Shown here: in pieces, positions 8,722 through 54,776 of the stretch
Layout: each line of letters begins with the position of its first letter
Position numbering within the stretch: the stretch's first letter is position 1
Source of the DNA: a bacterium
GTDB lineage: Bacteria > Patescibacteriota > Saccharimonadia > CAILAD01 > GCA-016700035
Assembly (NCBI GenBank): GCA_016700035.1
Contig: CP064998.1
Coordinates: 727,551 to 791,550, forward strand
Reading direction: 5' to 3'
Length of the DNA: 64,000 nucleotides
Position numbers and translations under genes: made by a program
Notes under the pieces: generated by a model
The model's input: only the letters and a program-made list of their open reading frames with translations
Told to the model about the DNA's origin: nothing
Databases searched by the model: none

Positions 8722-9275
8722 GGGGCGGCTCCTTTCTTATCATGTATGAATGTATAGTAGGCGGCTGATTCTCGTGCAAACGTTCGTTGGCTGACAATAT
8801 TAAGTCCAACGTAGTTCATTTCCGAGATTGTCCATGCGCCAGTCTGACTATTGACGGCAATAACGTAAGCCACGTGTCCCCACTTACCGTTGTCGGACTG
8901 AAAAATCGCTCCGACAGCTGGCGTGTGATTCACTGCATAGCCATCACGAATCGCCCGATCATCCCAGGTATTAGCATCGCCCCACGTGGTTGGAATCGGG
9001 TAGCCTGCCGACAGGCGCATCGAAAATGCCCAGTAGGTACAGTTGCCCCACTCATAGGTATTGCCCGCAACTGGCCCACCCATGTAAAACCCCTGGGATT
9101 CGGCCGCTGCCAGGCTCGGCACATTAGATAGAAACGACACTACGTCCTCGCCCATGGCAAAGACGGCTGCAAACGGCAACGCCACAATAACCGCCATAGT
9201 GGCCAGCACCAGGCTGATCTGTTTTTTAACATTTCCGCCTGTCACCACATTAAGTGCGACCAGGGCTGGATTCAT
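8691..9275 (-). CDS. CHAP-domain peptidoglycan hydrolase (T4SS cell-wall hydrolase, functional analogue of VirB1/Orf14/TcpG), with an N-terminal TM helix.
   Basis: CHAP catalytic pattern GNCTYWA...GYPIP...WGDANTWDDRA...VGAIF...GKWGHVAYV with conserved Cys and His. Positioned between the VirB4 and T4CP genes. Confidence 0.7.
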   Translation of the reverse strand: MNPALVALNVVTGGNVKKQISLVLATMAVIVALPFAAVFAMGEDVVSFLSNVPSLAAAESQGFYMGGPVAGNTYEWGNCTYWAFSMRLSAGYPIPTTWGDANTWDDRAIRDGYAVNHTPAVGAIFQSDNGKWGHVAYVIAVNSQTGAWTISEMNYVGLNIVSQRTFARESAAYYTFIHDKKGAAPWTPQPISQP

Positions 9276-11642: not shown

Positions 11643-12117
11643 ATAAGGCTCCTTTCTTGGTCATTTCAAATCTTAAATTACTGCCAGGTTTGTTGATGGT
11701 TTCTAGCACTTGGGCAGCATCGTGAAAGGCTAGTTTCGGTAGAGGTGGTACCTTTGCGGCTGTCGTGCTTGTCTGCTCACTTGCATCAGTTTTTTTGATC
11801 GTATATTCTTCTCGGTAATCAGCACTTTTCTGAAATACATAGTGCCGAGGACGCAGGTTATAGCGCAGAATTGTAACCAGCCAGAAAAGCACAATCTTGC
11901 CTTTGATGCGGATAGCCAGGATGCCGGATAGAAGTGCAATCACACTCATCACCAGGTACTTATATATGTTGCCCTCCATAATAGGCGGCAGTATGACAAA
12001 TAGTCCGGCACCAACAAAGATTGGTACGATACATAACACCAGTTGAGAGAAACCCAGGTTACCCATAATCCGATCTTCTACGGTAGTAACTTGGGCGGGA
12101 ACGGCAGTGCTTCTCAT
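11614..12117 (-). CDS. VirB3/PrgI-like small T4SS membrane protein (167 aa, two TM helices).
   Basis: Two hydrophobic helices (IVPIFVGAGLFVILPP, LVMSVIALLSGILAI). Located directly upstream of VirB4, as in Gram-positive T4SS loci. Confidence 0.4.
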   Translation of the reverse strand: MRSTAVPAQVTTVEDRIMGNLGFSQLVLCIVPIFVGAGLFVILPPIMEGNIYKYLVMSVIALLSGILAIRIKGKIVLFWLVTILRYNLRPRHYVFQKSADYREEYTIKKTDASEQTSTTAAKVPPLPKLAFHDAAQVLETINKPGSNLRFEMTKKGALYVRLTEVED

Positions 12118-13604
12118 GATTTTGTCTCCTTACTTTTACTTGCTGATTGCTTGATAGCTCCATCTCGAGGGGTTGGCTTCAGGGCCTCATTAGTCGTACC
12201 AGTCTTACCGGACACCAATGTGCCTTTACGGTGTGGTGTGCTTGGGCTAGCTTCAGCACCTCTCTTGGTGGCATAACTCGCAGTCTGAGTCCGATCGGTC
12301 TTGAGTCCTTGCGGATGAGTGCCAGTGTGTGATCCAGCTGATTTCACACCACTAGTCTTACTGCCAGCTGCGCCTGCCACTGCTTTACCTTTGCCAGTCA
12401 TGTAGCTAACACCATTCATAAACTGGCTGCCGAGCTTGCGGGCATTACGTGAGCCCATGCTGACATAGCTAAACTGCATCATGACACCTTGGGTTTTGAG
12501 TAGCACCAGTACCGTAGCTAGTCCAACTACCATCGACATCAGGACATTCGGCACCTGATTATCCCCACTCGTCGCCGACATACCGGTAAACAGGGTGGCG
12601 GCCAGCATCAGTGTCACCACATGCACAAACAGCACAAAGATCGTCGTCACATAGGTCTTGATTGCCGACACCGAAAAGTCTCGGAAACTAGGGATTAGCC
12701 ACAATGCAATTACCATCGGGGACAGTACTGCACCCAGAAATAGCACGACTAAACGGCCGACGTAGTAGACCAGCAATATGACCGAGAAGATTAAAAAAGC
12801 CAGCATGACCAGCAGTGCTGCTGCACCTTGACCACCACTTTCTTTAACTACTGCCGTCAGTGTGTCCCAGACTGAACTCGCACCACTGACTTTAGTAATT
12901 GCAGTAATCAGTACGTTGGATAGTTCGATCAGAGCATCGATGAAGAAGATCGAGGTGTTGATGAGCAAGAAAGCCAGCCCTAGCCGGGGCAGCAACTTCT
13001 TGATATCGAGCTCATCGAAGCCAAATGTCGTTGCACTCATAACGTGGAAACCGAGCAGTGCCACTATCAGAATAAACAGCACATCCGTAATGCCAACTAC
13101 TGCCAACCATAGACTAAAGACCCCTGAGTTTTGCAGCATCAGGGGTGTCTCTTTCGTAAAGTAATCCAGCGCCGCAAGGAACGGCGCAGCCACCGCTTGA
13201 ATTATATTATTGAGAAATCCCGTCACCGCTTTAATTAACACTTCTACCAAGCCACTACCAACATTATCAGGTTCAATCGCTTGAAGTGTTGGCAGTGTGG
13301 CGTTATTGGTGCCCGATGGGTCACCATAAGCACCAGATAAAATCGTGGTCAGTGTGGCAGCACCAAGGACTAAGACCAGACCAATCAGGGCGTTCTTAAT
13401 AACCCGTTTGGCATTTTCCAGAGCCTCGGGATTGCCGCTGCTGGTGATGTACTGATAGCCACCATTGACCAGGAAAAAGACACAGGCGATTGAGGCCAGA
13501 CCGGCTAGCACCCGAATAGTCGGTCCAACGTAATCCCGCATTACGGTGATAGCACCCGAGGTGTCCGCCAGGATTGGCAGACTACTGTGCACGACATTAA
13601 TCAC
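12114..13604 (-). CDS. VirB6/TrbL-like polytopic T4SS membrane protein (496 aa), with a low-complexity S/T/G/K-rich C-terminal tail.
   Basis: At least six predicted TM helices. The N-terminal segment shares the motif YITSSGNPE with the upstream pilin-like protein. The C-terminal 120 aa are Ser/Thr/Gly/Lys-rich. Confidence 0.5.
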   Translation of the reverse strand: MINVVHSSLPILADTSGAITVMRDYVGPTIRVLAGLASIACVFFLVNGGYQYITSSGNPEALENAKRVIKNALIGLVLVLGAATLTTILSGAYGDPSGTNNATLPTLQAIEPDNVGSGLVEVLIKAVTGFLNNIIQAVAAPFLAALDYFTKETPLMLQNSGVFSLWLAVVGITDVLFILIVALLGFHVMSATTFGFDELDIKKLLPRLGLAFLLINTSIFFIDALIELSNVLITAITKVSGASSVWDTLTAVVKESGGQGAAALLVMLAFLIFSVILLVYYVGRLVVLFLGAVLSPMVIALWLIPSFRDFSVSAIKTYVTTIFVLFVHVVTLMLAATLFTGMSATSGDNQVPNVLMSMVVGLATVLVLLKTQGVMMQFSYVSMGSRNARKLGSQFMNGVSYMTGKGKAVAGAAGSKTSGVKSAGSHTGTHPQGLKTDRTQTASYATKRGAEASPSTPHRKGTLVSGKTGTTNEALKPTPRDGAIKQSASKSKETKS

Positions 13605-13608
13605 GGTG

Positions 13609-13947
13609 TTACCCTCCGAATGCGCTGCTTGCCAGTGAAGTTACGATATTGCTAATCACAAATGCACCGATCACGATAGCCAGGCCAATCAAGGAGTAGG
13701 TAATTGTTTTCTTACCACGATCTAAATGTTCAGGATTACCGGAGCTGGTGATATAGATAAAACCACCTGCAACTAAAAAGCCGGTCGCAACAAGACCGGC
13801 TAGTCCAGCAAAAACCGTGATAATTGATCTAATAAAGTTTTCGACATTACTAACCCCAGCAGTTGCAGCCAAAACAGGCGGAGCATACAAAAGTTGAGTC
13901 CCTGTTACCAAAAAGGCTATGAGTTTTAACTTAGTCCTAGATCGCAT
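13609..13947 (-). CDS. VirB2/TrbC-like pilin-family protein (113 aa): signal peptide plus two hydrophobic helices separated by a short polar loop. Start reassigned to ATG at 13947 with an upstream AAGGAGG RBS.
   Basis: MRSRTKLKLIAFLVTGTQLLYAPPVLAATAG is signal-peptide-like. The helices are FAGLAGLVATGFLVAGGFIYI and SLIGLAIVIGAFVISNIVT. The rc of cctcctt at 13954-13960 is the RBS. Confidence 0.45.
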   Translation of the reverse strand: MRSRTKLKLIAFLVTGTQLLYAPPVLAATAGVSNVENFIRSIITVFAGLAGLVATGFLVAGGFIYITSSGNPEHLDRGKKTITYSLIGLAIVIGAFVISNIVTSLASSAFGG

Positions 13948-14201
13948 GTTACTCCTCCTTATGTCTGTAATAAATCTAGCACACACTATTGCGTACATGC
14001 AAATTATATTATATACATAAGCAATATAAGGGGTGCGGCGTTGCCGCTTCATTGACAGGTTTGCTACACTAGTAGAGTGAAAGCTAAGATAAAAACTCGA
14101 AAACATAGACCACTTAGGCGTAAATTAGTCAGCTCGAAACTCAAACTTACACCGTACCTTGATATACCGCTCAAGTAGAATCATGACTCAAGGACAAAAC
14201 C

Positions 14202-14230
14202 TTGACATTATCTTAGAATTATATTATAGT
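14202..14230 (+). promoter_or_regulatory. Consensus sigma-70-type promoter P1 (TTGACA, 17-nt spacer, TATAGT) upstream of the DGR target gene.
   Basis: ttgacattatcttagaattatattatagt: exact -35 hexamer, 17-bp spacer, near-consensus -10. Confidence 0.5.
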
Positions 14231-14265
14231 TATATTCCTAATTTTCGGCGCGCTTTTTCTAAATT

Positions 14266-14293
14266 TTGACACTATGCTAAAGCTTGTTATAAT
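14266..14293 (+). promoter_or_regulatory. Second consensus promoter P2 (TTGACA, 16-nt spacer, TATAAT), overlapping the first ATG of the ORF track.
   Basis: ttgacactatgctaaagcttgttataat: perfect -35 and -10 hexamers. This implies translation starts downstream at ATG 14307. Confidence 0.5.
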
Positions 14294-14306
14294 ATTTTTG
14301 AATACC

Positions 14307-15191
14307 ATGAAGCGTGATGTACAACCCAGATCAAGTTTGAACACCGGCCGCCAAATTCTCGATAAATTTGTACGGTCAAGGCATAGTCGTGCCGCCATAC
14401 TCCTGGGAATTCTCGTCGCCGTTACTTTTGTCGGACTGAGAGTCTACCACGCCTACGCCGAAACGTACCCAGGCGGCAGCGACAATGGCCAGACCTCCCG
14501 TCTCAAAAGTTTGTCCGACGATCTGCAAACTTTAGGCTTCGGCAGCCCGACCAACTCCCCAGATTGGGGTTCTTTGTGGAATCGCATCAACACAGCATCT
14601 CGCTGGACACCGCCAGGTGATGTCACCACCTCGGACGTTCGTCTCGGAAAAAAGTTTTACAACAACAATCGCACAGAGCAGACCGGCACACTTTCAGCTG
14701 TTGGTCCGTGCCCAACTCAGGACTGGAACGACGGTCACGCCTCAGCCAATCAGACCGCAAACTGTGTCGACACTGTCACCTGGACAGTTCCATCACCAGT
14801 CGTCACTGGAGACGACAAGCGTGACCCTCGCACCGGACTTGCCTGGAGTCAGTGTCTCATCAACAGCAGTGGTACTGTGACTTTCGGACCATCTGGTTGC
14901 ACCAGCTGGTCCTGGGACGCCTCCGCTGCTGCCAATGTGGCAGTCGGTGGTAAAACGGCATCCCAGTTGTGCTCCGAGCGCAACGGCGGAGGCGTTTGGC
15001 GTCTTCCCACTCAGAAAGAACTCATGCAGGCCTACATTGACGGCTCAAGCTACAACCTTACTTCCACCGGTGCGACCCACTGGAGTCTGACCCAGTTCTC
15101 GGGTTCGGTTGCGTGGTTCGTGTACCTCAGTAATGGCACCACGGGTACCACCAATAAGACGAGTACCTACTATGTCCGTTGCGTCCGGTAA
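14307..15191 (+). CDS. DGR target protein: membrane-anchored, with a C-terminal C-type-lectin/DUF1566-like domain carrying the variable region. The ORF track starts at 14274, but 14307 is preferred because of promoter P2.
   Basis: TM helix AAILLGILVAVTFVGLRVY. The C-terminal WRLPTQKELMQAYIDGSSYNLTS...VRCVR resembles the DUF1566/FGE-type CLec fold of DGR targets. The last ~120 nt match TR 18479-18601 except at TR adenines. Confidence 0.8.
   Translation: MKRDVQPRSSLNTGRQILDKFVRSRHSRAAILLGILVAVTFVGLRVYHAYAETYPGGSDNGQTSRLKSLSDDLQTLGFGSPTNSPDWGSLWNRINTASRWTPPGDVTTSDVRLGKKFYNNNRTEQTGTLSAVGPCPTQDWNDGHASANQTANCVDTVTWTVPSPVVTGDDKRDPRTGLAWSQCLINSSGTVTFGPSGCTSWSWDASAAANVAVGGKTASQLCSERNGGGVWRLPTQKELMQAYIDGSSYNLTSTGATHWSLTQFSGSVAWFVYLSNGTTGTTNKTSTYYVRCVR
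15066..15188 (+). repeat. VR1: the active variable region of the DGR target gene.
   Basis: Codon-by-codon alignment with the TR. All 17 differences fall on TR adenines (for example aac to acc, ttc, tac or ggt). The shared 3' IMH-like end is gtccgttgcgtccgg. Confidence 0.8.
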
Positions 15192-15329
15192 TCATTTGGT
15201 TATTGGATTATTTGGTTATTAGTCTTACCGCCGTAGGCGGCCGAAGCAATTTTTTTCGGGGGTAGGAGTAAAGGGTAGTTTTGCCTTAAGGCTTAGAGAC
15301 ACTGAAGCTTTGCTATATACTACTCTACA

Positions 15330-15716
15330 ATGAAGATATTCGATATTCTTTTTGAAGATGGTGCAGAACCTGAACCCCACGAAATACAGACTGCACTCTT
15401 CCTGCGTAAGACAGGTAAGAAAATAACGTTCATAGCACCCAAGAATCGAACCGGTGTGAAAACACCAGATATCCGCATGGATAGCTTACATTGGGAAATT
15501 AAATCGCCTATGAGTGCCAGTGCACGATCAATTGAACATGCTTTTCGTAGCGCTCTTAAACAGTCCGGAAATGTGATATTTGACTTGCGGCGTAGCAAGG
15601 CAAGTGACATGGCTAATCTAGCAAAAATAAACCGACAGATAAAGTTGATAAAGGGTAAGAAACTACGACGGGTACTCGTAATCACAAAGAAAGAAAAACT
15701 ACTTGACTTAAAGTAA
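15330..15716 (+). CDS. Hypothetical 128-aa protein with a possible PD-(D/E)xK nuclease-fold motif.
   Basis: The segment GVKTPDIRMDSLHWEIKSP carries a PD...ExK arrangement with 11-aa spacing. This is weak, single-motif evidence. Confidence 0.3.
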   Translation: MKIFDILFEDGAEPEPHEIQTALFLRKTGKKITFIAPKNRTGVKTPDIRMDSLHWEIKSPMSASARSIEHAFRSALKQSGNVIFDLRRSKASDMANLAKINRQIKLIKGKKLRRVLVITKKEKLLDLK

Positions 15717-15838
15717 CTATTCATGCTAATGTATTGGTACAGGCACCGAGGCCTCTGCTGGATAGCTAGGGTTGCGGTGTCTTTATATGTATGTTTACTT
15801 ATGGTCAGTGACTAGACTTCAGGCTGCTTCCTTCCATA

Positions 15839-16027
15839 TTACCGGACGCAACGGACAAGGCGGGCACCCGTCTTAGCGGCGGTTTCCGTGACGCCATTAC
15901 CAAGGTACACCTGCCACGCACCAGTAACCGAGTTATGAGTCAAACTCCAGTGGGCCGCAGCGGTGGAAGTAAGGTTGTAGCTTGAGCCGTCAATGTAGGC
16001 CTGCATGAGTTCTTTCTGAGTGGGAAG
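15839..16027 (-). repeat. VR-like cassette 2 (minus strand): a promoterless 3' fragment of a target-type gene with a distinct variable region.
   Basis: It encodes ...PTQKELMQAYIDGSSYNLTSTAAAHWSLTHNSVTGAWQVYLGNGVTETAAKTGARLVRCVR*. The 5' and 3' ends (VRCVR plus stop) are conserved. The variable part has the same length (35 codons) as VR1 and the TR. Confidence 0.65.
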
Positions 16028-16110
16028 ACGGCTTGAACACTCCAAGTATAGCGGATTACTTATATTACCAAAAGTTGCCATCTTTAACTACTTTTGGTAG
16101 TATTGATATT

Positions 16111-17331
16111 ATGCTACTGCAACGAACCGAATATATCGATAGGCTACTCAAGCTTAGAGATAAAAATGTCATAAAGGTTATCACTGGTGTTCGCCGTTCG
16201 GGTAAGTCAACACTATTATCGATATATCGCAGTAAACTTGAGGAAAGTGGTGTGAGTCAGGCACGCATACAAACCTATAACTACGAAGATCCTCGAGTGA
16301 ATGACATGCTTGACTGGCGCGAAATATATCACTCTATAGAGAGCAAGCTCGTGAGTGATACGAAAAACTACGTGTTTCTAGATGAGATACAAGTTGTTCC
16401 TGAGTTCGAGAAATTAGTGGATGGTCTGTTTATTCATGATGACATCGACTTATACATTACTGGTTCAAATGCGTTCTTGCTATCGAGCGAACTAGCGACG
16501 CTTCTATCGGGTAGATACATTAGTACTCATGTTCTGCCTTTGTCTTTCGCTGAATACTCCCAGGCGTTTCCTGATGAGAATAGGGATCGTGTTTTTGAGC
16601 GCTACCTGAACAGTAGCACGCTACCTGAGACAATAGAGATCGCCGAAGGCAGTCCAGAGCTCGTTGCTGACTACGTGCGTGACGTATATCAGACGGTGGT
16701 ACAAAAAGACATTCGGAGTCGTTTTGCAATCCGCGATATGGATAACTTCGAAAAAGTCGTCAAGTTTGCTTTCGATAACATTGGCAACCTCGTATCTGCC
16801 AAAAGTATTGCTGATGCTCTGAATGCAGGCAATACTGCACATCAGCAAGACATATCACACAAAACAGTCACAAACTATCTCGAGTATCTCACGACATCAT
16901 ACCTTCTCTACAAAGCTGACCGCTACGATATTAAAGGTAAACAGCTCCTTAAAACACAAGAAAAATACTATGCGGTTGATCTCGGACTACGGAGCGTGTT
17001 GCTGGGGCAAAGGACAGATATTGATCTTGGGCATAAGCTTGAAAACATCGTGTATCTGGAATTACGCCGTCGCAATAACGGTCACATTCTCGTCGGTAAG
17101 TCAGATAGTAAAGAGGTGGATTTTGTCGTACAAAACACATCCGATGATCGGCAGTATTACCAGGTCGCCCTGACGGTTAAGGACGAAAAAACACTTGCCA
17201 GAGAGCTTGAGCCACTCCAAAGAATTCGTGACAATTACCAGAAGATTCTCTTAACGACTGATTACGATGACAGTGTGTATGAGGGCATCCGTAAGATCAA
17301 CGTGGTTGATTGGTTACTTACCACTGAATGA
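16111..17331 (+). CDS. AAA+ ATPase of the COG1373/DUF4143 family (406 aa from ATG 16111).
   Basis: P-loop GVRRSGKSTLL. Walker B VFLDEIQ. Length and motif order are typical of COG1373 ATPases. Confidence 0.6.
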   Translation: MLLQRTEYIDRLLKLRDKNVIKVITGVRRSGKSTLLSIYRSKLEESGVSQARIQTYNYEDPRVNDMLDWREIYHSIESKLVSDTKNYVFLDEIQVVPEFEKLVDGLFIHDDIDLYITGSNAFLLSSELATLLSGRYISTHVLPLSFAEYSQAFPDENRDRVFERYLNSSTLPETIEIAEGSPELVADYVRDVYQTVVQKDIRSRFAIRDMDNFEKVVKFAFDNIGNLVSAKSIADALNAGNTAHQQDISHKTVTNYLEYLTTSYLLYKADRYDIKGKQLLKTQEKYYAVDLGLRSVLLGQRTDIDLGHKLENIVYLELRRRNNGHILVGKSDSKEVDFVVQNTSDDRQYYQVALTVKDEKTLARELEPLQRIRDNYQKILLTTDYDDSVYEGIRKINVVDWLLTTE

Positions 17332-17437
17332 ACTAAAGCTCATCTAAGGATATTCGAAGATACCTTAATGGGCATACCAGATACATATCATGGTCAATTT
17401 CAGTAGATTGAGTTGTGGTAGCTTCCTTGCACAATAC

Positions 17438-17627
17438 CGGACGCAACGAACAGAGCTGGGCTGCGTCTTATTGGCGCTACCCGTGGCGCCATTACTGAGG
17501 GTCAAGGCCCACGCACTCGAACCCGAGTTCTGGGTCAAACTCCAGTTGCCCGCAGCGGTGGAAGTAAGGTTGTAGCTTGAGCCGTCAATGTAGGCCTGCA
17601 TGAGTTCTTTCTGAGTGGGAAAGAACT
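17438..17627 (-). repeat. VR-like cassette 3 (minus strand). The stop after VRCVR has mutated (taa to tat), giving a read-through tail.
   Basis: It encodes MQAYIDGSSYNLTSTAAGNWSLTQNSGSSAWALTLSNGATGSANKTQPSSVRCVRY.... Same conserved flanks and the same 35-codon variable segment. Confidence 0.65.
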
Positions 17628-17865
17628 CAGCCTTATGTAGATATGGAATTCAACTCCATTTTGCATTTAACCTAAGTATAATATTTCATCCTACCTATCC
17701 TTTTAAGAAAATACCGTATGTTCAGGTTCAGTACATTGAGAGCACCGCTACTTCATTAAGATACAGGCATAGAGAGAAAATAACCCCATTTCGGAATATC
17801 GTAGTATTATGGTTATAGTTAACTTTAATTAAACTAAAAAACGTCTAAATGGCAAGGGACGCATT

Positions 17866-18222
17866 GTGGCTCGTTACGAACACTTACCAGTATTCAATGA
17901 TACCTACGATCTAAACCTGTATTTCTTTAAGTTGTCACGTGGCTTTCCAAAAGACTATAAGTACGGTTTATCGCAAGAAATCAGGGCGCTGCTGACCGAA
18001 CTGTTAGATGACATCATTATTGCCAATAGTAGCCCCGATAAACAAACCGTTCTCAAGCGGGCTGCGCTCATAATAGAACGGATTAAGTTTAAGATTCGGA
18101 TATTAAAAGACCTTAAAATTATGAATGTCCGCAGTTACGAGTACTTTTCAAAGCGCCTAATTGCCGTATCGAAGCAAATTAATAAATGGGGTGACTGGTC
18201 GAGAGGCAAGCAGCCAGCCTAA
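17866..18222 (+). CDS. avd: DGR accessory variability determinant Avd (four-helix-bundle, 23S-rRNA-IVS-protein family), 118 aa.
   Basis: The motif FPKDYKYGLSQEIRA matches the FPKEEKYGLTSQ signature of Avd/IVS proteins. The ~120-aa size and the position upstream of TR and RT both fit. Confidence 0.7.
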   Translation: MARYEHLPVFNDTYDLNLYFFKLSRGFPKDYKYGLSQEIRALLTELLDDIIIANSSPDKQTVLKRAALIIERIKFKIRILKDLKIMNVRSYEYFSKRLIAVSKQINKWGDWSRGKQPA

Positions 18223-18478
18223 ACCAGTTGTCGGCCCATAGGTGTGCTAAAAACTCTGGCGCTCCACTTGGGCCTATAACAGGCCCAAAAGAAAGGCATA
18301 ACGTGAGAGCCGGTAGTTTTTGCTATTATGGCTATCTACCGGGAGGAAGCAAGTGCCCCATTACGGCTGTCGCTCCTATTCTTTTAATAGAGTAGGAATA
18401 CTATCAGGAGCTACTACACTGCTCGTCAGTGATGTGGTACCCCTAACTGGCCGAAAGTCGGCAGCAGATACCTAGGCC

Positions 18479-18601
18479 CCCGCTGCGAACCACTGGAGTC
18501 TGACCCAGAACTCGGGTTCGAATGCGTGGAACGTGAACCTCAGTAATGGCAACACGAATAACAACAATAAGACGAATACCAACTATGTCCGTTGCGTCCG
18601 G
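18479..18601 (+). repeat. DGR template repeat (TR): an asparagine-codon-rich (AAC/AAT) template lacking the 5' coding context.
   Basis: It translates as AANHWSLTQNSGSNAWNVNLSNGNTNNNNKTNTNYVRCVR, with 13 Asn codons. VR1 differs from it only at A positions. There is no start codon and no conserved MQAYIDGSS segment upstream. Confidence 0.8.
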
Positions 18602-18671
18602 TACAGGGGCGCCTTTCTTTTTAATAAGGTTAGTAAACCCAATAATGAATCTTTCCCACTTAAGATAAGAA

Positions 18672-18842
18672 CTCATGCAGGCCTACATTGACGGCTCAAG
18701 CTACAACCTTACTTCCCCCGCTGCGGGCCACTGGAGTTTGACTCAGAGCTCGGCTACGGCTGCGTGGACCGTGCTCCTCGGTAATGGCTACACGACTGGC
18801 ACCCTTAAACCGGATACCTACTATGTCCGTTGCGTCCGGTAC
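18672..18842 (+). repeat. VR-like cassette 4 (plus strand). It shares the ccc gct gcg 5' junction and the cggtacagg 3' flank with the TR.
   Basis: It encodes MQAYIDGSSYNLTSPAAGHWSLTQSSATAAWTVLLGNGYTTGTLKPDTYYVRCVRY. Most differences from the TR are at A positions, with a few at non-A positions. Confidence 0.65.
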
Positions 18843-18998
18843 AGGCCGCTTTTCTTTTTATTGAGCCCGATTAAGATATGTCAGAAACTTAGGCATTTAA
18901 TCTTCCAAGGCTAAACCAAAAAACTGAACCACTAAAAAAGAGCATAGTATCGACAAAAAGCTCAACGGCAGCTCTCAATGTTTTAGATTTACTCTCCA

Positions 18999-19167
18999 CT
19001 CATGCAGGCCTACATTGACGGCTCAAGCTACAACCTTACTTCCACCGCTGCGGCCCACTGGAGTTTGACTCAGAACTCGGTATCGAATGCGTGGTTCATG
19101 AACCTTAGTCTTGGCACCACGGATGCCATCGGTAAGACGAATACCCGCTCTGTCCGTTGCGTCCGGT
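18999..19167 (+). repeat. VR-like cassette 5 (plus strand), immediately upstream of the RT gene.
   Basis: It encodes MQAYIDGSSYNLTSTAAAHWSLTQNSVSNAWFMNLSLGTTDAIGKTNTRSVRCVRY. It belongs to the agt ttg act subfamily together with cassettes 2 to 4. Confidence 0.65.
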
Positions 19168-19225
19168 ATCGAACTATTGGTTTGTATGGGGTAGATTTAT
19201 GCTGTAGGTCTCGTACACTTTAGAT

Positions 19226-20341
19226 ATGGATACGTACTTCACGTTTGCAAACTTGCACCAGGCCTATTTAGATTGTAAAAAATACAAAAATCAAACTTTT
19301 TATCATCAAAAATTTGCCTACGACCTCGAGAAAAACCTGTCTAAGTTGGAACTCGATCTTGTAAATCGCACCTACCGGCCTGAACGTTCGATTGCCTTTG
19401 TGGTGACACAACCAAAAATTCGTGAAATTTTTGCGGCCGACTTCCGAGATCGTGTCATTCACCACTTGTTGTATAACTACTTGGCACCAGTGTTTGAACC
19501 ACGTTTTATCTATGATTCGTGGGCCTGCCGTCCGGCAAAAGGCACCCATGGGGCAATGCTGCGCTTGCAGCAATTTACTCGGAAAGTAAGTCAGAATCGC
19601 CGTTCTCGTGATTGTTACTACCTCAAGATGGACATAAAAAGCTTCTTTACCAGTATCGATAAACACATTCTGTACCAGCTGGTTGAACGCCGAGTCAAAA
19701 ACAAGGAAATCCGCTGGCTAGCACACGTTAACATCTTCCATGACTGTGCTCGTGACATCCCGCCACGTATCCAGAGTGCACCAACTCTTTTTGATAGTCT
19801 CCCACTAGACAAATCGCTGTTTACCGTCGAACCAGGCAAGGGGCTACCAATTGGCAATCTAACGTCGCAGTTCTTTGCCAATGTTTACCTACATGAACTG
19901 GATGCCTTTGTGAAGCACCACTTAAAAGCCAGGTACTACGTCCGCTACGTCGATGATTTCGTGATAGTACATGAGGACCAAACAGTGCTCGAACGCTACA
20001 AGCAGGAAATTACCGAGTTTGTCTGGCAGCGCCTGCGCTTAAAGGTTCACCCTGGCAAAGTGTTTATCCGCCCGATTAGCGACGGCATTGACTTTGTTGG
20101 CTACGTGGTACGCCCCGACTATATTTTAATCCGTCGGCGGGTCGTCGGTGAGTGGCGTAGGCGTATGGAGCAGGCCGCTACTCCTGACCAGCAGCAGACA
20201 ATTTACCACTCCTACCAAGCCCATGCCCGCTGGGCTGATTCACATAAACTACAGCGGGTCATGCGCAAACGATTACCAGATGTAGAAACAGTATATTCCA
20301 ATCCACCAATGAGCCTGAACGAGCCAGTACGAACTAGCTAG
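19226..20341 (+). CDS. DGR reverse transcriptase (371 aa).
   Basis: RT motif 4 appears in the DGR-specific form PIGNLTSQFFANVYL. Catalytic YVDD is present (VRYVDDFVIV). Gene order is Avd, TR, then RT. Confidence 0.85.
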   Translation: MDTYFTFANLHQAYLDCKKYKNQTFYHQKFAYDLEKNLSKLELDLVNRTYRPERSIAFVVTQPKIREIFAADFRDRVIHHLLYNYLAPVFEPRFIYDSWACRPAKGTHGAMLRLQQFTRKVSQNRRSRDCYYLKMDIKSFFTSIDKHILYQLVERRVKNKEIRWLAHVNIFHDCARDIPPRIQSAPTLFDSLPLDKSLFTVEPGKGLPIGNLTSQFFANVYLHELDAFVKHHLKARYYVRYVDDFVIVHEDQTVLERYKQEITEFVWQRLRLKVHPGKVFIRPISDGIDFVGYVVRPDYILIRRRVVGEWRRRMEQAATPDQQQTIYHSYQAHARWADSHKLQRVMRKRLPDVETVYSNPPMSLNEPVRTS

Positions 20342-21585
20342 CGTTTAGTTGTAAAGATTGTTTGAAACAGTCTGTCTTTGGCTTGTTGCATAGCAACTGC
20401 CCAAGCTGTATCGCTCTCAGCATACGCTATGGTATCCATCTGCGTAAAGCTAATACCTGGCTTGAGATAGGTTTCAGCTTTTGGCAGTGACTTTAGTTTC
20501 TCATACGGTACCATATAGCCCTTGGCTGGGTAGTGGTATGTACGCTTGCCAGTCTTTGTATCAACCTCGGTTTCTCGGTAACCGCAGGGTCTGTGGAAAT
20601 TGAGGTAGGGCACAAACCAATCACGGTACCAATCGTTAATCTCGGGTGCGTGTTCTCTAGGTATGTGGGCATAGCCTAATGCCTTACGGATAATACTGCC
20701 ATTCTTGGTCTCCACTAGGCCATTATCTCCACTCTGGTAGGCTCGTGACTTACTGAGTTTAATCAACATGGTCTTGAGCAGAACAGCAACCTGCTTGTTG
20801 ATGTACTCTGAGCCATTGTCAGCATGGAACTCGGTAAGCTGAAATGGGAATAGCGCAAGAGCTACTTCAAGTGCTGGTAGCATATAGCGTTCAGTGATCC
20901 GTTCTACTGCCACTACTACCTCCCACTGAGTGACCTCATCTACTAGGTTTATGTGGTACACCCCTTTCTGTTTGTCCATATCTCCTTGGTGTACTGTATC
21001 CACCCTAATGTAACCAGGACGGCCTTCAGGTCTTGGCTTTCGTCGCTCACCAATGGCTACGGCTGTAGCTTGGGTGCGTGTAAATGTTAGAGACTGGTTA
21101 CGGTAACCGATGCTACTACGTAGGTTGTAGATATGACTGACAGAAATACCCGCCAATCGCTGGTAACGTTCATCACCAAACCGTACATAGGCCCGAATAC
21201 AGAGCTCCCGAGCAGCTTTGCCACTCAGCCGATCATGAACATTGTCAACTTCAGCCAAGGCAGTACAATCCTCGGCTGTGTAGCGTAAAGCAAACTGATT
21301 ACGGCTATTGGTAGGTTCAAGGCGAAGCTGTCCGTTCTTAGCGTACTGGCTAATGAGCCGAGTAACCTGTGCTCGGCTGTAACCAGTCACTGCAATGGCA
21401 TAGGCTCGAACAATACCTTTGTCTGGTTTACTAAGTTTGAGATAGCTCTGCTGTACGAGTAGCTTTTGTAGCCACTCATAGGCCTCTATCTTACTGGTTG
21501 TTTTGCATTCCAGAGGACTAACAGCAGTGAACTGTCGCATCTCCTCCATGCTTGTGGTTACTGAAGCGTACATAGTGATAGTCAT
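20338..21585 (-). CDS. DDE transposase/integrase with an rve core, IS481-like family (415 aa). Its stop overlaps the RT stop.
   Basis: An N-terminal HTH-like region, then a catalytic core with ...HADNGSEYINKQ...LSKSRAYQSGDNGLVE.... This is the typical IS481/ISNCY rve-domain pattern. Confidence 0.65.
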   Translation of the reverse strand: MTITMYASVTTSMEEMRQFTAVSPLECKTTSKIEAYEWLQKLLVQQSYLKLSKPDKGIVRAYAIAVTGYSRAQVTRLISQYAKNGQLRLEPTNSRNQFALRYTAEDCTALAEVDNVHDRLSGKAARELCIRAYVRFGDERYQRLAGISVSHIYNLRSSIGYRNQSLTFTRTQATAVAIGERRKPRPEGRPGYIRVDTVHQGDMDKQKGVYHINLVDEVTQWEVVVAVERITERYMLPALEVALALFPFQLTEFHADNGSEYINKQVAVLLKTMLIKLSKSRAYQSGDNGLVETKNGSIIRKALGYAHIPREHAPEINDWYRDWFVPYLNFHRPCGYRETEVDTKTGKRTYHYPAKGYMVPYEKLKSLPKAETYLKPGISFTQMDTIAYAESDTAWAVAMQQAKDRLFQTIFTTKR

Positions 21586-21683
21586 ACCTCCATGCTAGAT
21601 CAGTTCGACCCTTCAGGCTCATACTGTTTTAGAACCCGATGCCTTGTTCAGGCTCATTTTGCTTTGGATAAGAGTGAAACTGT

Positions 21684-28818: not shown

Positions 28819-30514
28819 ACCTCGCAACGGACTACTTGCCATACGGGTGTCCTCTGATAAACAGGGGCTGGACGGTGACTCACCGGAAGCTCAACGTGAG
28901 CAAGGTGAACGCTACGCCGCTACACACAATATTATTATTACCGAAACTGTCATCCTGATGGAGTCTGCCTCGCACGAAGACCAGCCAATGCAGGAAGTTA
29001 TCAACCGCTGCAAAGACAAGAGTAAAGGCATTGAGGTAGTGTTAATTAAATCTATTGACCGCTTTACTCGTGGTGGCGGTGACTACTATTCCCCCTTAAA
29101 AAGACAGCTAACCAAACTTGGAGTTGCTCTTGAGGATATGTACGGTGTCATTGGTAAACGACAAGTTAATACGTTGGAACACACTGGCTTCAAATACTAC
29201 TGGAGTGAGTTCAATCCTACGCAGAAATCCGAATACTTAGAAGCGGAACGAGCTAAAGACGAAATGCGCGACATTATGAGCCGTATGATCGGTGCCGAAA
29301 TCCGCTACACCCAGCTTGGTTACTGGATGCGCCAGCCGCCGTATGGTTTTATTAGTCAGAAAGTTGATACCAAGAATGGTAAACGCCTTATCTTGCAACC
29401 ACATCCCGAAGAATCACCGTATATGATACGACTGTTTGAGATGAGAGCCGAGAGTATTTACAGCGACCAGCAGATCGCTGATGAACTCAATCGACTTGGT
29501 TTTAGAACCCGCATCCGCTATGTGCGTGATAAATATGATCGGACCAAGATTGTCAGACAAATCGGCGGACATAAAATGACCGCTAAAATGGTTGACCGCT
29601 ACGTACACAACCCGATATATGCTGGTGTGATTAAAGAGAAATGGACGTACGATAAACCAGTCAAAGCCCAGTTTGACGGTCTGGTATTGCCAGCACTGTA
29701 TAACGCAGCTAATCGGGGCAAGTACATCATTAAGATTGACGCTCAAAACGTCGTAACGCTGTACCGCAAACAACCGCCAGCACACTTGACGAATAAGAAT
29801 ATGCACAATCCAGAGTTTCCATACAAAAAGGTGGTGACATGTTCAGAGTGCAAGAGAACATTACTTGGCAGTGCCTCACGTGGTAAAGCCGGTAAATACT
29901 ACCCAGCCTACCATTGCAGTAAGGATGGCCACTATTTCCGTGTCCCAAAGGCTGTATTCGAGCAAACCATAGATGATGTTGTCAGACGGCTTGAGATTGC
30001 CCCAGAAAAGCTAGCCGACCTTATGAGCGCTATTGAGCAAGCATGGCTTGAGAAACAAGCTCAGACCGCCCAGGACAACCAGAAAGTCCTAGAACAACGC
30101 CAGGCTATTGAAACGCAGATTAAGGCTGGAGTAGACCGCATGAAACTCGTTACCAGCAAAACGGCAATTAAATACATAGAGGAGGATATTGAGGGGCTAG
30201 AAAAACAGCTTACCCAGCTAGATGAACAACAAGCTAATAAATCGGCAGAAACGGTAGATATGGAAGTCGTGTTGCAATATGCAAGATACTTGGTGGAACA
30301 CCTAGCAGATATACTGCTTCACCTCCGTAATCCGCTCCGAAAAGCAGCCTTTTTTGGCGCTATCTTTAACGCAGTACCAACTTACGAAGATTTAGTTGGT
30401 GGAACACAAAAAAACAGCCCGATACCAGGGGTAAATGAGCTGTTTCGTATTGCGTTGTCGCCAAATCCTAATATGGTGACCCCACGGGGAATCGAACCCC
30501 GATTGCCAGATTGA
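28802..30514 (+). CDS. Large serine recombinase (570 aa). Its 3' end overlaps the tRNA-Glu gene.
   Basis: N-terminal resolvase catalytic motif LLAIRVSSDKQ, with the Ser nucleophile. Recombinase domain. Zinc-ribbon CSECKRT...YHCSKDGH. C-terminal coiled-coil. The last ~13 codons are antisense to the tRNA. Confidence 0.8.
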   Translation: MSQNSKPRNGLLAIRVSSDKQGLDGDSPEAQREQGERYAATHNIIITETVILMESASHEDQPMQEVINRCKDKSKGIEVVLIKSIDRFTRGGGDYYSPLKRQLTKLGVALEDMYGVIGKRQVNTLEHTGFKYYWSEFNPTQKSEYLEAERAKDEMRDIMSRMIGAEIRYTQLGYWMRQPPYGFISQKVDTKNGKRLILQPHPEESPYMIRLFEMRAESIYSDQQIADELNRLGFRTRIRYVRDKYDRTKIVRQIGGHKMTAKMVDRYVHNPIYAGVIKEKWTYDKPVKAQFDGLVLPALYNAANRGKYIIKIDAQNVVTLYRKQPPAHLTNKNMHNPEFPYKKVVTCSECKRTLLGSASRGKAGKYYPAYHCSKDGHYFRVPKAVFEQTIDDVVRRLEIAPEKLADLMSAIEQAWLEKQAQTAQDNQKVLEQRQAIETQIKAGVDRMKLVTSKTAIKYIEEDIEGLEKQLTQLDEQQANKSAETVDMEVVLQYARYLVEHLADILLHLRNPLRKAAFFGAIFNAVPTYEDLVGGTQKNSPIPGVNELFRIALSPNPNMVTPRGIEPRLPD

Positions 30515-30548
30515 AAATCTGATGTCCTAACCGTTAGACGATGGGGCC
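30474..30548 (-). tRNA. tRNA-Glu (anticodon UUC) with encoded CCA. Its 3' 19 nt are duplicated at 5146-5164.
   Basis: A manual cloverleaf can be drawn. Acceptor GGCCCCA/TGGGGTC. D-arm GTCT..GGAC. Anticodon stem TCAGA/TCTGG with loop TTTTCAA. T-arm CGGGG TTCGATT CCCCG. Discriminator A plus CCA. Confidence 0.75.
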
Positions 30549-49693: not shown

Positions 49694-49770
49694 GCGCCCT
49701 TAGCTCAGCTGGATAGAGCGTGTGGCTTCGGACCACAAGGTCGGGGGTTCGAATCCCTCAGGGCGCGCCA
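49694..49770 (+). tRNA. tRNA-Arg (anticodon UCG).
   Basis: Cloverleaf: acceptor GCGCCCT/AGGGCGC, D-arm GCTC AGCTGGATA GAGC, anticodon loop CTTCGGA, T-arm GGGGG TTCGAAT CCCTC, CCA encoded. Confidence 0.8.
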
Positions 49771-49889
49771 TTTTATTGAGCGCAAGTTATCATCGAGAGC
49801 CATAAACAAGTCCTCAGATTGCAACATTCACCACTATAAAAGACGAGTATTGAAACTCGTCTTTTATAGTGACACGTAGCCCCTTAGGG

Positions 49890-50342
49890 CTAACTGGCTA
49901 CTGGAGTTGCCGGAGGAGGTGCAGGTGGTGGCGTAGTAGAACTTGCATCTACCCCCTGATATTGAGCTTTACCAAAGCCAAGCATTGGATAGCCAACCCA
50001 ACCAAATATGATCAACCCAAATATACCAAAGACCGTACTCTTACCAAATACCTTAGCTAGATCTAGCGCAATAATAATTGCAATTACAATATTCACAAAC
50101 GGAATCAGAAATAATAGTAGCCACCATACCGGGCGACCAACAATCTTGAGCATAATATAATAATTATAGATTGGTATAATTGCAGCCCAGCCCGGTTGAC
50201 CAGCCTTAGTAAATATTTTCCACAGTGAAGCTATGAGCACTAATGCAAGAGCTAGCCAAAAAAACATATAAAACATAGCAAATGCCGGATCAACAACTGG
50301 CCCAGGCGTGCTAGAAAAACTAACCGAGGGATCACTATACAT
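49890..50342 (-). CDS. Hypothetical polytopic membrane protein with a Pro/Thr-rich C-terminus (150 aa).
   Basis: Three or four TM helices. The tail is TPPPAPPPATP. Confidence 0.35.
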   Translation of the reverse strand: MYSDPSVSFSSTPGPVVDPAFAMFYMFFWLALALVLIASLWKIFTKAGQPGWAAIIPIYNYYIMLKIVGRPVWWLLLFLIPFVNIVIAIIIALDLAKVFGKSTVFGIFGLIIFGWVGYPMLGFGKAQYQGVDASSTTPPPAPPPATPVAS

Positions 50343-50513
50343 AATAAAGACTCCTTTAAATATTTATGTTTTAAGCATAAACCCAGACTTCACACATTTC
50401 AATGTTCTATTCTGGAGCTAATCTTGAAAATTACCACTAGATATAGTAAAATATCCTAGTTTTCAGCCGATTATGCAGTTACAATAAGATATCTCCACAG
50501 GAATTTCCCGCGT

Positions 50514-50590
50514 GGGCCATTAGCTCAGTTGGTTAGAGCACCTGCCTCTTAAGCAGGGTGTCCTGGGTTCGAGTCCCAGATGGCCCTCCA
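50514..50590 (+). tRNA. tRNA-Lys (anticodon CUU).
   Basis: Acceptor GGGCCAT/ATGGCCC, D-arm AGCTCAGTTGGTTAGAGC, anticodon loop CTCTTAA, T-arm CTGGG TTCGAGT CCCAG, CCA. Confidence 0.8.
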
Positions 50591-50623
50591 AAGATAATAT
50601 TTCAGGCACTTCAAAATAACTGT

Positions 50624-50980
50624 ATGAAACATACGGCATCCATCGACACCTATTTTAATCAGCTTGACCCAAACCAGCGGGCAGAGCTAGAACGTATTCG
50701 CGATATAGTTTTAGCTGTTGCGCCCGAGGCTTTAGAAAAAATTAGCTACGGTATGCCAACTATGACCTACAAAGGCAAAGTACTGGTGCATTTTGCAGCC
50801 TTTAAAAACCATCTGAGCCTCTTCCCTACATCTGGACCTACCGAAGAGCTAGCCTCAAAACTTCAAGACTATAAAACCTCAAAGGGCACAATTCAATTTA
50901 GTGTAGAAAATCCCCTGCCGGAAAAATTAATTCGTGAGATTATTACTATTCGAATACGCGACATCAATCAAGCGCAGTAA
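50624..50980 (+). CDS. DUF1801 (YdhG-like) domain protein. Start moved to MKHTAS (50624) to clear the tRNA.
   Basis: The ORF track starts it inside tRNA-Lys. The downstream ATG gives a 118-aa protein with the typical DUF1801 size. Confidence 0.4.
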   Translation: MKHTASIDTYFNQLDPNQRAELERIRDIVLAVAPEALEKISYGMPTMTYKGKVLVHFAAFKNHLSLFPTSGPTEELASKLQDYKTSKGTIQFSVENPLPEKLIREIITIRIRDINQAQ

Positions 50981-51031
50981 CTTAGAGATCATTGAAAAAT
51001 AGTAATATATCTGATAGAATATGGCAGTTTT

Positions 51032-51108
51032 CGGGGTGTGGCGCAGTTGGCTAGCGCGCCTGGTTTGGGACCAGGAGGCCGGAGGTTCGAGTCCTCTCAC
51101 CCCGACCA
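51032..51108 (+). tRNA. tRNA-Pro (anticodon UGG).
   Basis: Acceptor CGGGGTG/CACCCCG, D-arm GCGCAGTTGGCTAGCGC, anticodon loop TTTGGGA, T-arm GGAGG TTCGAGT CCTCT, CCA. Confidence 0.8.
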
Positions 51109-51148
51109 ATTCGATTATTCGTAATTATTTAGGTATATAATACAAACT

Positions 51149-51415
51149 ATGGATCAGAACATTTTTAATCAATCAATCGGGAATTTTATAGAACAAAACT
51201 TTCTATGGATTGCCTTGGTGTATGCTTGGTCACTTTTCTGGAAGGCAGTTGCACTTTGGAAAACCGCACGATCTAATGACAAGGTTTGGTTTATAGTTTT
51301 TCTAATTATTAATACTCTGGGAATTTTAGAAATTTTGTATATTTTTCACTTTTCAAAACACCCAGGCCTACCAAAACAACTAAGTCGTAAAAAAGAGCAA
51401 AAAAATACCACGTAG
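51149..51415 (+). CDS. Hypothetical small two-TM membrane protein (88 aa).
   Basis: ORF with two hydrophobic helices. Confidence 0.3.
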   Translation: MDQNIFNQSIGNFIEQNFLWIALVYAWSLFWKAVALWKTARSNDKVWFIVFLIINTLGILEILYIFHFSKHPGLPKQLSRKKEQKNTT

Positions 51416-51452
51416 CTTTGTCACTACGTGGTTTAGTTGAAGTAAATTACTG

Positions 51453-51947
51453 TCAGGCCTCTGAGTCACCAGTCATTACGGCCGAAGGCATGGTATCGCT
51501 GGCGTATGGATTGTCGAACCACCGTGTTAGCCCTTCGTACCGCAGTTCTGCATCCAGGTCGGGAAGCTCGCCGGCGTCGAAGGCGTCGATGAACACCTGT
51601 AGCTGTTCTGGCAACTGCACGTCATAAACGGTTGCCGTATTGCCAAATACCGGTCGCATGTCCTCATCCACTGATTCGATGGAGCAAGCCCGAGGCGACA
51701 CGCCCCAAGCTTCCCCAACCGCTGTTGCATCACCACGATCACTAACAAGGACACGATCGCAATACACAGCCACCGGCTGAGGTAGTGAGGCTCGGAATGC
51801 CCGAGAGATTACGCAGTCCAGTGGACTCTTACGAAAACCCACTGGCAGCTTTGCTGGTCGCTCGCCACCAAGTGCGCTGATGGCGTTACCAACCAGACCA
51901 AGGGCGGCTGCCCTCACATCTCGATACTGCAGGTCACCACTCATCAC
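51453..51947 (-). CDS. GC-rich (~57%) hypothetical protein, about 164 aa from MSGDLQ.
   Basis: Compositional outlier. No motif. Confidence 0.3.
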   Translation of the reverse strand: MMSGDLQYRDVRAAALGLVGNAISALGGERPAKLPVGFRKSPLDCVISRAFRASLPQPVAVYCDRVLVSDRGDATAVGEAWGVSPRACSIESVDEDMRPVFGNTATVYDVQLPEQLQVFIDAFDAGELPDLDAELRYEGLTRWFDNPYASDTMPSAVMTGDSEA

Positions 51948-52075
51948 ATTCCCTTTCTTATAGAAGGTGCAGGGTTGCCAACAGTGTACTCCGATATAAG
52001 ACTCTCGGCAATACGTAGTTTGCATTTTTTCTAAGCTCTTGCGATAAACCCCATGCACCTGCGAGAATAGCTACA

Positions 52076-53440: not shown

Positions 53441-53455
53441 ACTTATGCTAACCGT

Positions 53456-53869: not shown

Positions 53870-53872
53870 GTA

Positions 53873-54238: not shown

Positions 54239-54347
54239 AATAATTACTCCATTATATTTTCAGTATACTAATCATCCTTTTTTAAGCCAACCACTTGGAA
54301 AATAACAGATATAATGGTAAAATAATGCGGTCTTTGAAAAATATTTT

Positions 54348-54422: not shown

Positions 54423-54439
54423 CTTTTTTTCAGGACAGA

Positions 54440-54775: not shown

Positions 54776-54776
54776 T

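Follow-up and report, generated by a model that had tools for sequence, protein, structure and literature searches.

In Bordetella phage BPP-1, the diversity-generating retroelement (DGR) mtd-avd-TR-brt transfers sequence from a template repeat (TR) to a variable repeat (VR) with changes specific to adenines, by means of a reverse transcriptase (RT) and its partner Avd; the VR lies at the C-terminus of a protein with a C-type-lectin fold, and TR and VR have in common a GC-rich 3' end resembling an initiation of mutagenic homing (IMH) sequence. All of these features recur in a bacterial DNA stretch of 64,000 nucleotides (contig CP064998.1, positions 727,551 to 791,550; hereafter the window), of which positions 14202-20341 almost certainly hold a complete DGR. 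Unlike that of BPP-1, this element resides not in a phage but in the chromosome of a bacterium of the candidate phyla radiation (CPR), and its target is an Lcl_C/DUF1566 protein instead of Mtd. The DGR of Legionella pneumophila, or category 'd' of Wu et al. (DUF1566/CLec2; PMC5758913), likewise has its VR in a DUF1566/Lcl_C domain of a short surface-exposed target, and the best structural match of the target described here is the Lcl C-terminal domain (8q4e); the difference lies in the anchor, which is an N-terminal transmembrane helix here and a lipoprotein signal in Legionella. The cellular DGRs of Patescibacteria/CPR (clade 2 of Roux et al. 2021, PMC8144416; CPR set of Wu et al.) share with the window element its cellular, non-viral nature, and membership in clade 2 is suggested by the names of homologues: the named homologues of both RT and target belong to Patescibacteria and Saccharibacteria metagenome-assembled genomes (MAGs). 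One exact-motif scan of viral contigs, in which RT and target themselves were not searched, returned no match. A DGR of this kind, i.e., of CPR lineage and with a DUF1566/CLec2-type target, is already known and is ordinary for such bacteria.

The call of a DGR in the initial annotation of this DNA was upheld by a DGR-type RT, a bAvd protein, adenine-biased differences between TR and the first variable repeat (VR1), a C-type-lectin-like target and VR1 polymorphism. The sequence record labels the RT as no more than a group II intron RT-domain protein and the target as no more than a DUF1566-domain protein; recognition of the DGR, one more of thousands in CPR bacteria, corrects these labels and would otherwise bring nothing new. 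The gene order of target, Avd, TR and RT given initially is right for the parts named, but it omits a CdiA_C-like open reading frame (ORF), an AAA_14/DUF4143 ATPase gene and four VR-like cassettes. The locus is in fact not compact: the four orphan VR cassettes (VR2-VR5) and an insertion sequence (IS) in the 3' end of the RT gene had all gone unreported. A chromosomal CPR-type DGR, combined with the reading of VR2-VR5 proposed below, is very probably the best joint explanation of the locus.

TR and VR1 (coordinates of all features in Table 1) align without gaps over 127 nt. Realignment reproduced the 17 mismatches counted initially, but not the statement that every one falls on a TR adenine and that all other bases are identical: 15 of the 17 are on A and two are on C, namely 18479 C>A and 18483 C>G, which also belong to the repeat as it had been delimited. 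The two cytosine mismatches sit at the 5' edge, and from 18484 on all 15 mismatches are on A, namely seven A>T, four A>C and four A>G. By chance, at least 15 of 17 mismatches would fall on A with P = 1.2e-7 (hypergeometric; 38 A in 127 nt). The 13 AAC/AAT codons of the TR in the VR frame were found as described, and no plausible gene includes the TR, in accordance with its description as non-coding. In all VR copies the A-site substitutions occupy codon positions 1 or 2 only. Moreover, the TR is the sole template-like copy among the six repeats, with 74% of mismatches on its own A as compared to 19-35% for the others, and its sequence is identical in another sample (L182).

The shared 3' end that had been taken for an IMH, GTCCGTTGCGTCCGGTA, represents the last 17 nt, is GC-rich and is indeed identical in TR and all VRs; as an IMH it is a candidate. 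In this respect the locus differs from BPP-1, since IMH and IMH* are identical here through GGTA and TR and VR diverge only afterwards. A further difference is that the 3' end of the TR itself forms a terminator-like hairpin, which, judged from its sequence, may serve for priming or mark where the TR RNA ends. Relatives keep the motif GGTACnGGGGCGCCTTTCTTTTT downstream of their TRs, and a hairpin with GGGGCGC(C) and a T-run was also seen after the TRs of L005, L006 and L011, whose RTs show 67-74% identity.

That the DGR has been active in this strain group follows from VR1 alleles that differ almost solely at TR-adenine positions. Eight distinct VR1 alleles were found in contigs from other samples, chosen by an identical neighboring CdiA_C-like protein or by the target itself, and their flanks are 93-98% identical. 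Each allele has 7-24 mismatches to the window TR, of which 0-2 are on bases other than A in seven alleles and seven in that of L182, six of these at the start of its contig. Sites that vary among the alleles comprise 27 of the 38 A and 11 of the 89 non-A positions (Fisher P 1.3e-10), which bears out the population polymorphism named in the initial annotation as a test. Additionally, members of the target's protein cluster (90% identity) are near-identical outside the VR and differ at Asn-templated positions, and P0243 and P0244 represent two further VR1 alleles on 32-40-kb NCBI contigs.

While the anatomy, the adenine-specific TR/VR pattern and the inter-strain hypervariability of VR1 were observed here, the course of events is drawn by analogy from the BPP-1 paradigm. 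Following this, we propose that Avd and TR would be transcribed, that the RT together with Avd would copy TR RNA into cDNA with misincorporation opposite adenines, and that the cDNA would then replace VR1, recoding up to 13 Asn-templated positions. In the target, a C-type-lectin-like surface protein anchored in the membrane, the changes would come to lie on the face that binds the ligand.

The RT motifs IGNLTSQ and YVDD reported initially are present in the 371-aa ORF, which carries LPIGNLTSQFFANVYL and YVDD; the SQ dipeptide is a hallmark of DGR RTs (PMC3521204). The best solved relative is the BPP-1 DGR RT (8ub7, E 8.5e-48), as compared to E 6.5e-15 for the best group II intron RT match (6ar1), so that by similarity search the protein is closer to DGR RTs than to group II intron RTs. 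None of the NCBIfam RT models scored above its own cutoff for the 371-aa RT. The 118-aa ORF contains the FPKDYKYGLSQ motif by which it had been recognized as Avd, and reaches 48.9 bits for PF22296 bAvd in Pfam (cutoff 40).

The target was confirmed as a membrane-anchored DUF1566/C-type-lectin-like protein both by Pfam (PF07603, E 5.5e-14) and by an AlphaFold model, which was built on 58 homologues and gives a C-terminal domain of the Lcl_C/CLec-like type, as the structure check suggested in the initial annotation had anticipated. The predicted local distance difference test (pLDDT) of the model is 83, rising to 95-98 in the C-terminal domain, and residues 26-43 are helical. A Foldseek search with the model returned the Legionella Lcl C-terminal domain as best PDB match (8q4e, E 1.6e-5), followed by C-type-lectin-like chains. 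VR1 constitutes the final 41 codons of this 294-aa protein. The initial annotation had started the protein at ATG 14274 (305 aa); a start at ATG 14307 is more likely, because the second promoter match covers ATG 14274 and the homologues are 294-295 aa long. Of the tandem consensus promoters claimed upstream, both exist as matches, TTGACA-17-TATAGT at 14202-14230 (11/12) and TTGACA-16-TATAAT at 14266-14293 (12/12, with extended TG), but the second overlaps the formerly assigned start codon. The total of promoter- and terminator-like matches in the region is not above that of shuffled sequences, and the two near-perfect promoter matches alone stand out.

About 40 nt past VR1 (within a span of 40-70 nt) lie two GC-rich hairpins that no other VR copy has, whereas the corresponding hairpin of BPP-1 follows immediately after the VR. 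Their stems are kept in strain L010 with a changed loop, and from the sequence they are candidates for a homing-enhancing cruciform and/or a terminator.

Several points weigh against a typical and currently working DGR. The Avd match to NF033474 (E 3e-16, 59.6 bits) remains below the NCBIfam equivalog cutoff of 80, the hairpins downstream of VR1 are statistically weak (z -1.55), and the VR1 evidence for activity comes from contigs of different samples and not from reads of the source sample. Furthermore, TR and RT are separated by 588 bp of cassettes, and the IS replaces the end of the RT gene; recent silencing of the element by either the cassette gap or the IS is conceivable.

Searched with the TR, the window yields five VR copies, of which VR2-VR5 are absent from the initial annotation. 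All four show an excess of mismatches on TR adenines: 21 of 32 in VR2 (P 1e-6), 17 of 23 in VR3 (P 1.6e-6), 19 of 24 in VR4 (P 3e-8) and 16 of 23 in VR5 (P 1.5e-5). Each is a stub of ~190-220 bp in which 44-60 nt of the target precede the VR and the GC-rich 3' end follows, and thus holds only the last 55-63 target codons. By tblastn, the stubs start at target residues 232, 234, 238 and 239 of 294, and a tblastn search of the 64-kb window with the target found no gene body upstream of them and no other target gene. VR1 lies at the 3' end of a coding target and VR2-VR5 do not; in the target model, the fragment they encode amounts to half a helix and four strands, ~43% of the lectin-like domain. 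The 44-60 nt ahead of each stub VR are identical to the sequence preceding VR1 and encode (LPTQKE)LMQAYIDGSSYNLTS: VR1, VR2 and VR3 agree at 100% throughout this 5' flank, and VR4 and VR5 match it over its last 44-47 nt. Outside the cassette limits the flanks are unrelated to each other. The boundary CGTCTTCCCACT is common to VR1 and VR2 and its variant TCTTTCCCACT to VR3 and VR4; the VR2 and VR3 cassettes form a 222-nt direct repeat (15805-16026 and 17400-17621) of 81% identity, and the 3' flank of VR4, GGTACAGGCCGCTTTTCTTTTT, is a degenerate version of the hairpin and T-run motif GGTACnGGGGCGCCTTTCTTTTT that follows the TR. The reading frames of all four stubs are open, and GenBank lists the VR2 ORF as a hypothetical protein of 80 aa; a cluster look-up of the stub ORFs yielded nothing more. 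Scans of genome, metagenome and viral contigs for exact 29-mers of the cassette 5' flank gave no match.

Besides the changes at A sites, each stub carries 5-11 non-A differences from the TR, among which T at 18500 is common to 4/4 stubs and T at 18505 to 3/4. VR5 is identical in the window and in four other samples whose RT is identical to that of the window. By contrast, a 73-aa ORF from another metagenome (P0246) has the first 17 residues of VR5 and a near-identical read-through tail, corresponding to the sequence of the VR5-RT spacer, yet its VR differs from VR5 at ~20 residues, mostly Asn-templated. Similarly, the VR2-type cassette of L010 occupies the same junction as VR2 of the window and differs from it mostly at A sites.

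Multi-VR DGRs are common, and in Pelodictyon phaeoclathratiforme one VR does not fall into a coding region (PMC3521204). With a single TR and several VRs of either orientation, the present locus resembles such systems, and a non-coding VR has a precedent. The difference is that the extra VRs of those DGRs are situated in full-length paralogues with 'A exchanges without accumulation of other mutations' (PMC3521204), whereas 4/5 VRs of the present locus are stubs with non-A differences. In CPR DGRs, several non-A differences are often seen (PMC5758913). In order to place the stubs, the surroundings of DGR-type RTs from GTDB genomes, from JGI metagenomes and from the close relatives (146 loci) were surveyed for repeat pairs within 10 kb of the RT with 60-70% of mismatches on A, the window serving as positive control. 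Adenine-biased repeat pairs were present in 104/146 loci, with 139 VRs in ORFs having at least 100 codons upstream; the few calls of 'short' targets were traced to contig edges, to reversed pairs or to targets in which 86-99 codons precede the VR. No stub like VR2-VR5 was found in the ~104 loci with a filter that would miss decayed stubs, and four gene-less stubs in one locus set the window apart from the other cellular CPR DGRs. The four orphan stubs, with their polymorphism and mixed pattern of A and non-A differences, are unusual and only partly explained.

On balance, we slightly favor the reading that VR2-VR5 are gene-less pseudo-targets which arose by rearrangement at the DNA level and into which the DGR wrote rarely or formerly. 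They would have been left or spread by rearrangements, i.e., TR/VR recombination and insertion of the ATPase block and the IS, and the DGR would have written them in place, less often than VR1 and with an earlier TR allele as template for at least part of the writing; possibly such writing continues at a low rate. Writing in place is suggested because the stubs keep TR homology and the IMH-like 3' end. That they carry sequence written by the DGR is indicated by the TR adenines, which account for 16-21 of their 23-32 mismatches (P 1e-5 to 3e-8), all of these in the first or second codon position. The comparisons of P0246 with VR5 and of the L010 VR2 with that of the window are sequence evidence consistent with rewriting in place. 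In BPP-1, the sequence upstream of the VR is dispensable, the orientation of the target is free and a downstream hairpin raises efficiency (PMC3240598); following these target rules, the DGR could still reach, though less often, a stub that retains the 3' end and the homology to the TR. The non-A differences, the unchanged VR5 in four samples and the restriction of GC hairpins to VR1 are evidence for the stubs being poorer or former targets. About 40-50% of the stub non-A bases equal those of TR alleles of relatives (18500 T, 18505 T, 18516 C, 18518 A, 18541 T and 18589 T), which fits an earlier or different TR allele, chance matches not being negligible. Some observations weigh against this reading: random rearrangement accounts neither for the near-common 5' truncation point within 8 codons nor for the perfectly conserved 5' flank, about half of the stub non-A differences are unaccounted for, and the comparison with P0246 was made at the protein level only.

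The main alternative, which we regard as rather unlikely, holds that the stubs are inert snapshots, i.e., DNA copies of the target 3' end taken at different times that preserve old VR1 alleles and were never homing targets. An unchanged VR5 in the window and four other samples would be expected of such copies, as would 5-11 non-A differences per stub compared to the 0-2 of VR1 alleles (the extra ones of L182 being at its contig start) and the absence of a GC hairpin downstream of any stub. However, P0246 shares the flanks of VR5 and not its VR, the two VR2 copies at one junction differ mainly at A sites, and a process would be needed that repeatedly moved a gene end of ~200 bp nearby in both orientations. 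It is also most improbable that VR strain variants were stitched in tandem during long-read metagenome assembly. The window matches a 916-kb MAG contig, and repeats of this sort break short-read assemblies, L001-L004 all beginning at the VR5 edge; yet these independent short-read contigs hold the VR5-RT junction, L010 has a VR2-type cassette beside the target, L182 passes from the VR4 3' flank to the VR5 5' flank, P0246 is a VR5-type ORF and the cassettes have different unique flanks. Since the junctions are supported by the short-read contigs L001-L004, L010 and L182, the cassettes are not to be attributed to assembly.

Neisseria pilS and Borrelia vls combine one expressed gene with several promoter-less partial copies that have conserved flanks and a variable core. 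A functional archive of this type, in which the stubs as silent donors would store DGR variants for later gene conversion into VR1, is quite improbable here, and the same applies to the homology arms that it would use, the 60-nt 5' flank on one side and the shared 17-nt end on the other. We likewise give little credence to a second tier in which DGR variants are parked with conserved arms and swapped into the target or between strains; if true, it would couple a retroelement mutator to pilS-like cassette switching. The layout is similar to pilS and vls superficially, and the identity of the 5' flank, complete among VR1-VR3 and extending to VR4 and VR5 for the final 44-47 nt, would suit homology arms, as would the lack of strain differences in target positions 14997-15063, the 67 nt before VR1 that correspond to the cassette 5' flank: five strains show none there and 4-7 in the preceding 100 nt. 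This conservation coincides with the cassette boundary but is marginal (P ~0.03 given ~5% divergence). Open frames in all stubs, which could be counted in favor of an archive, are expected anyway because AAC-templated changes cannot create stops. What speaks against an archive is that no transfer from stub to VR1 was seen: the stub signature, a T in position 18500 or 18505, occurs in 0/8 VR1 DNA alleles, and the cluster's additional protein alleles keep SGS, none showing the SVS, SVT or SAT of the stubs, so that neither set includes a VR1 tract with stub-specific non-A bases. In addition, strains such as L011 have a normal target without any stub, and a retroelement accounts for the variability here, unlike in pilS and vls. 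Even less probable are true extra DGR targets expressed as variable peptides of 55-80 aa. Each stub does start with or contain an in-frame ATG (MQAYIDGSS...), the VR2 ORF is annotated in GenBank, and a weak promoter-like match (9/12) faces VR3. Against such small genes, the product would comprise less than half of a CLec domain and no membrane anchor or signal, 3/4 stubs read through into unrelated tails, stubs are absent from most related strains, and the ~104 other DGR loci contain no comparable short target.

Other origins were considered and rejected. A cDNA origin of the stubs, through reverse transcription of target mRNA or template switching, is unlikely, as none of the ~18 adenines of the 60-nt flank is changed in VR2, VR3 and VR5; random truncation of full paralogues conflicts with four starts within 8 codons and no trace of a gene body upstream. 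VR4 was dismissed as a second template, as no VR1 allele carries VR4 non-A bases, and neutral decay as a source of the stub non-A differences, as these cluster at few positions shared by the stubs and the adjoining flank has none.

Should the stubs indeed be written by the DGR, ~200 bp with TR homology and the GC-rich 3' end would suffice for retrohoming in a CPR element, and homing would continue on DNA coding for nothing. The stubs may moreover keep a fossil record of earlier TR alleles. One large DGR survey dropped targets of <300 nt (PMC8144416), and stubs would be missed systematically because standard pipelines discard such targets.

Table 1. Features of the DGR locus in the window (positions of the 64,000-nt stretch; VR positions within cassettes are given with the cassette).
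Feature	Position	Strand	Description
Two sigma-70-like promoter matches	14202..14293	+	Upstream of target; consensus matches only
DGR target gene	14307..15191	+	294 aa; N-terminal membrane helix; Lcl_C/DUF1566 C-type-lectin-like C-terminal domain
VR1	15064..15190	+	3' end of intact target; A-mutagenized part corresponds to TR 18488-18585
Two GC-rich hairpins	15228..15259	+	CCGCC-GTAG-GGCGG and CCGAAG...CGG with T-run
CdiA_C toxin-like ORF	15330..15716	+	128 aa; PF18451, E 4.8e-12; between target and Avd
VR2 cassette	15805..16030 (VR 15840-15966)	-	Target residues 232-294; ends in TAA like VR1
Strain-variable block	15808..17768	.	1961 bp; VR2 cassette, ATPase gene, VR3 cassette and 147 nt
AAA_14/DUF4143 ATPase	16111..17331	+	Passenger between VR2 and VR3; Pfam; PADLOC PDC-S01, E 8.6e-142
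VR3 cassette	17400..17624 (VR 17435-17561)	-	Target residues 234-294; no stop after CVR
Avd accessory protein	17866..18222	+	118 aa; GTG start; PF22296 bAvd
TR	18477..18603	+	38 A; 13 AAY codons; outside any plausible gene
TR 3'-end hairpin	18594..18622	+	TR end pairs with GGGGCGC, then CTTTCTTTTT; terminator-like
VR4 cassette	18650..18865 (VR 18715-18841)	+	Chimeric; target-type 5' flank, degenerate TR 3' hairpin flank
VR5 cassette	18998..19168 (VR 19042-19168)	+	58 nt upstream of RT start
DGR reverse transcriptase	19226..20341	+	371 aa; RVT_1; IGNLTSQ, YVDD; last ~10 residues (~361-371) from inserted IS
IS481-like insertion sequence	20308..21658	-	rve transposase 20338-21585; 19-nt inverted repeats; not part of the DGR

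In relatives whose RTs are 65-74% identical, the locus has the compact order target, (CdiA_C-like ORF), Avd, TR, RT, fn3 protein and ABC transporter, with the TR ~65 nt ahead of the RT, and this order is ancestral. Compared to it, the window has three additions, namely the 1961-bp block, the 588 bp with VR4 and VR5 that separate TR from RT, and the IS. The block is replaced by ~55 bp in 10/10 other contigs spanning the junction. Its ATPase is a full-length member of the PADLOC candidate-defense family PDC-S01, and a search of viral contigs for it gave no match. In L010, the VR2-type cassette at the same left junction is followed by a different ATPase from exactly the same cassette boundary, which suggests that the cassettes may be fixed arms around an exchangeable defense-type gene; at 8754-8937 of that contig, the boundary is followed by the N-terminus of a very divergent P-loop ATPase. 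In L182, the TR is directly followed by the VR4 3' flank and 18604-18841 are missing, as is expected from recombination between TR and VR4. The IS481-like element lies in the last codons of the RT gene, where it gives the RT its foreign C-terminal tail; it is present in L001-L003 and absent in L005, L011, L174 and L177. The locus is an insertion hot spot, and the TR/VR repeats themselves promote rearrangements.

The CdiA_C-like protein is 100% identical beside the target in 18 contigs of many samples, even where the Avd-TR-RT module is another allele, and its ORF is absent in the relatives L006, L173 and L177. It is a passenger of the sub-lineage rather than a recognized component of DGRs, and neither a partner nor an immunity gene is evident. 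In L011-type contigs, the target VR fits the window TR (12 mismatches, 11 on A) and not the adjacent TR, which differs from that of the window at 26 non-A positions. The Avd-TR-RT module of L011 is divergent altogether, with 81% identity over Avd-TR and ~69% over the RT gene. This misfit suggests that TR modules are exchanged between lineages; its source is a recent swap of modules or else chimerism of the metagenome contig. Within one study, the same VR1 allele was seen with two modules, the window type in L183 and the divergent one in L011, L012, L179 and L181.

The DGR is flanked by a type IV secretion pilin cluster on one side and a conserved pair of an fn3-protein and an ABC-transporter gene on the other. 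The target divergently adjoins the pilin genes (TrbC/VirB2-like and TrbL-like, 12114-14106 on the minus strand of the window), an adjacency that is kept in a relative with 67% RT identity (L006). In L009 and L010, a full type IV secretion system set stands alongside (PrgI, TraC, VirB4 and CHAP; TraG also in L009). A functional link between the target and the secretion system, e.g., adhesion for the secretion apparatus, is possible.

In L177, another bAvd gene lies at 19154-20088, at a distance of ~9 kb from the first DGR; it is accompanied by a TR/VR pair of its own in a 327-aa protein, with 17 of 20 mismatches on A, and no second RT is in view. Finally, the window holds seven tRNA genes unrelated to the DGR (49694-54854 and 30474-30548), six of which form a loose cluster for Arg, Lys, Pro, Gly, Arg and His.

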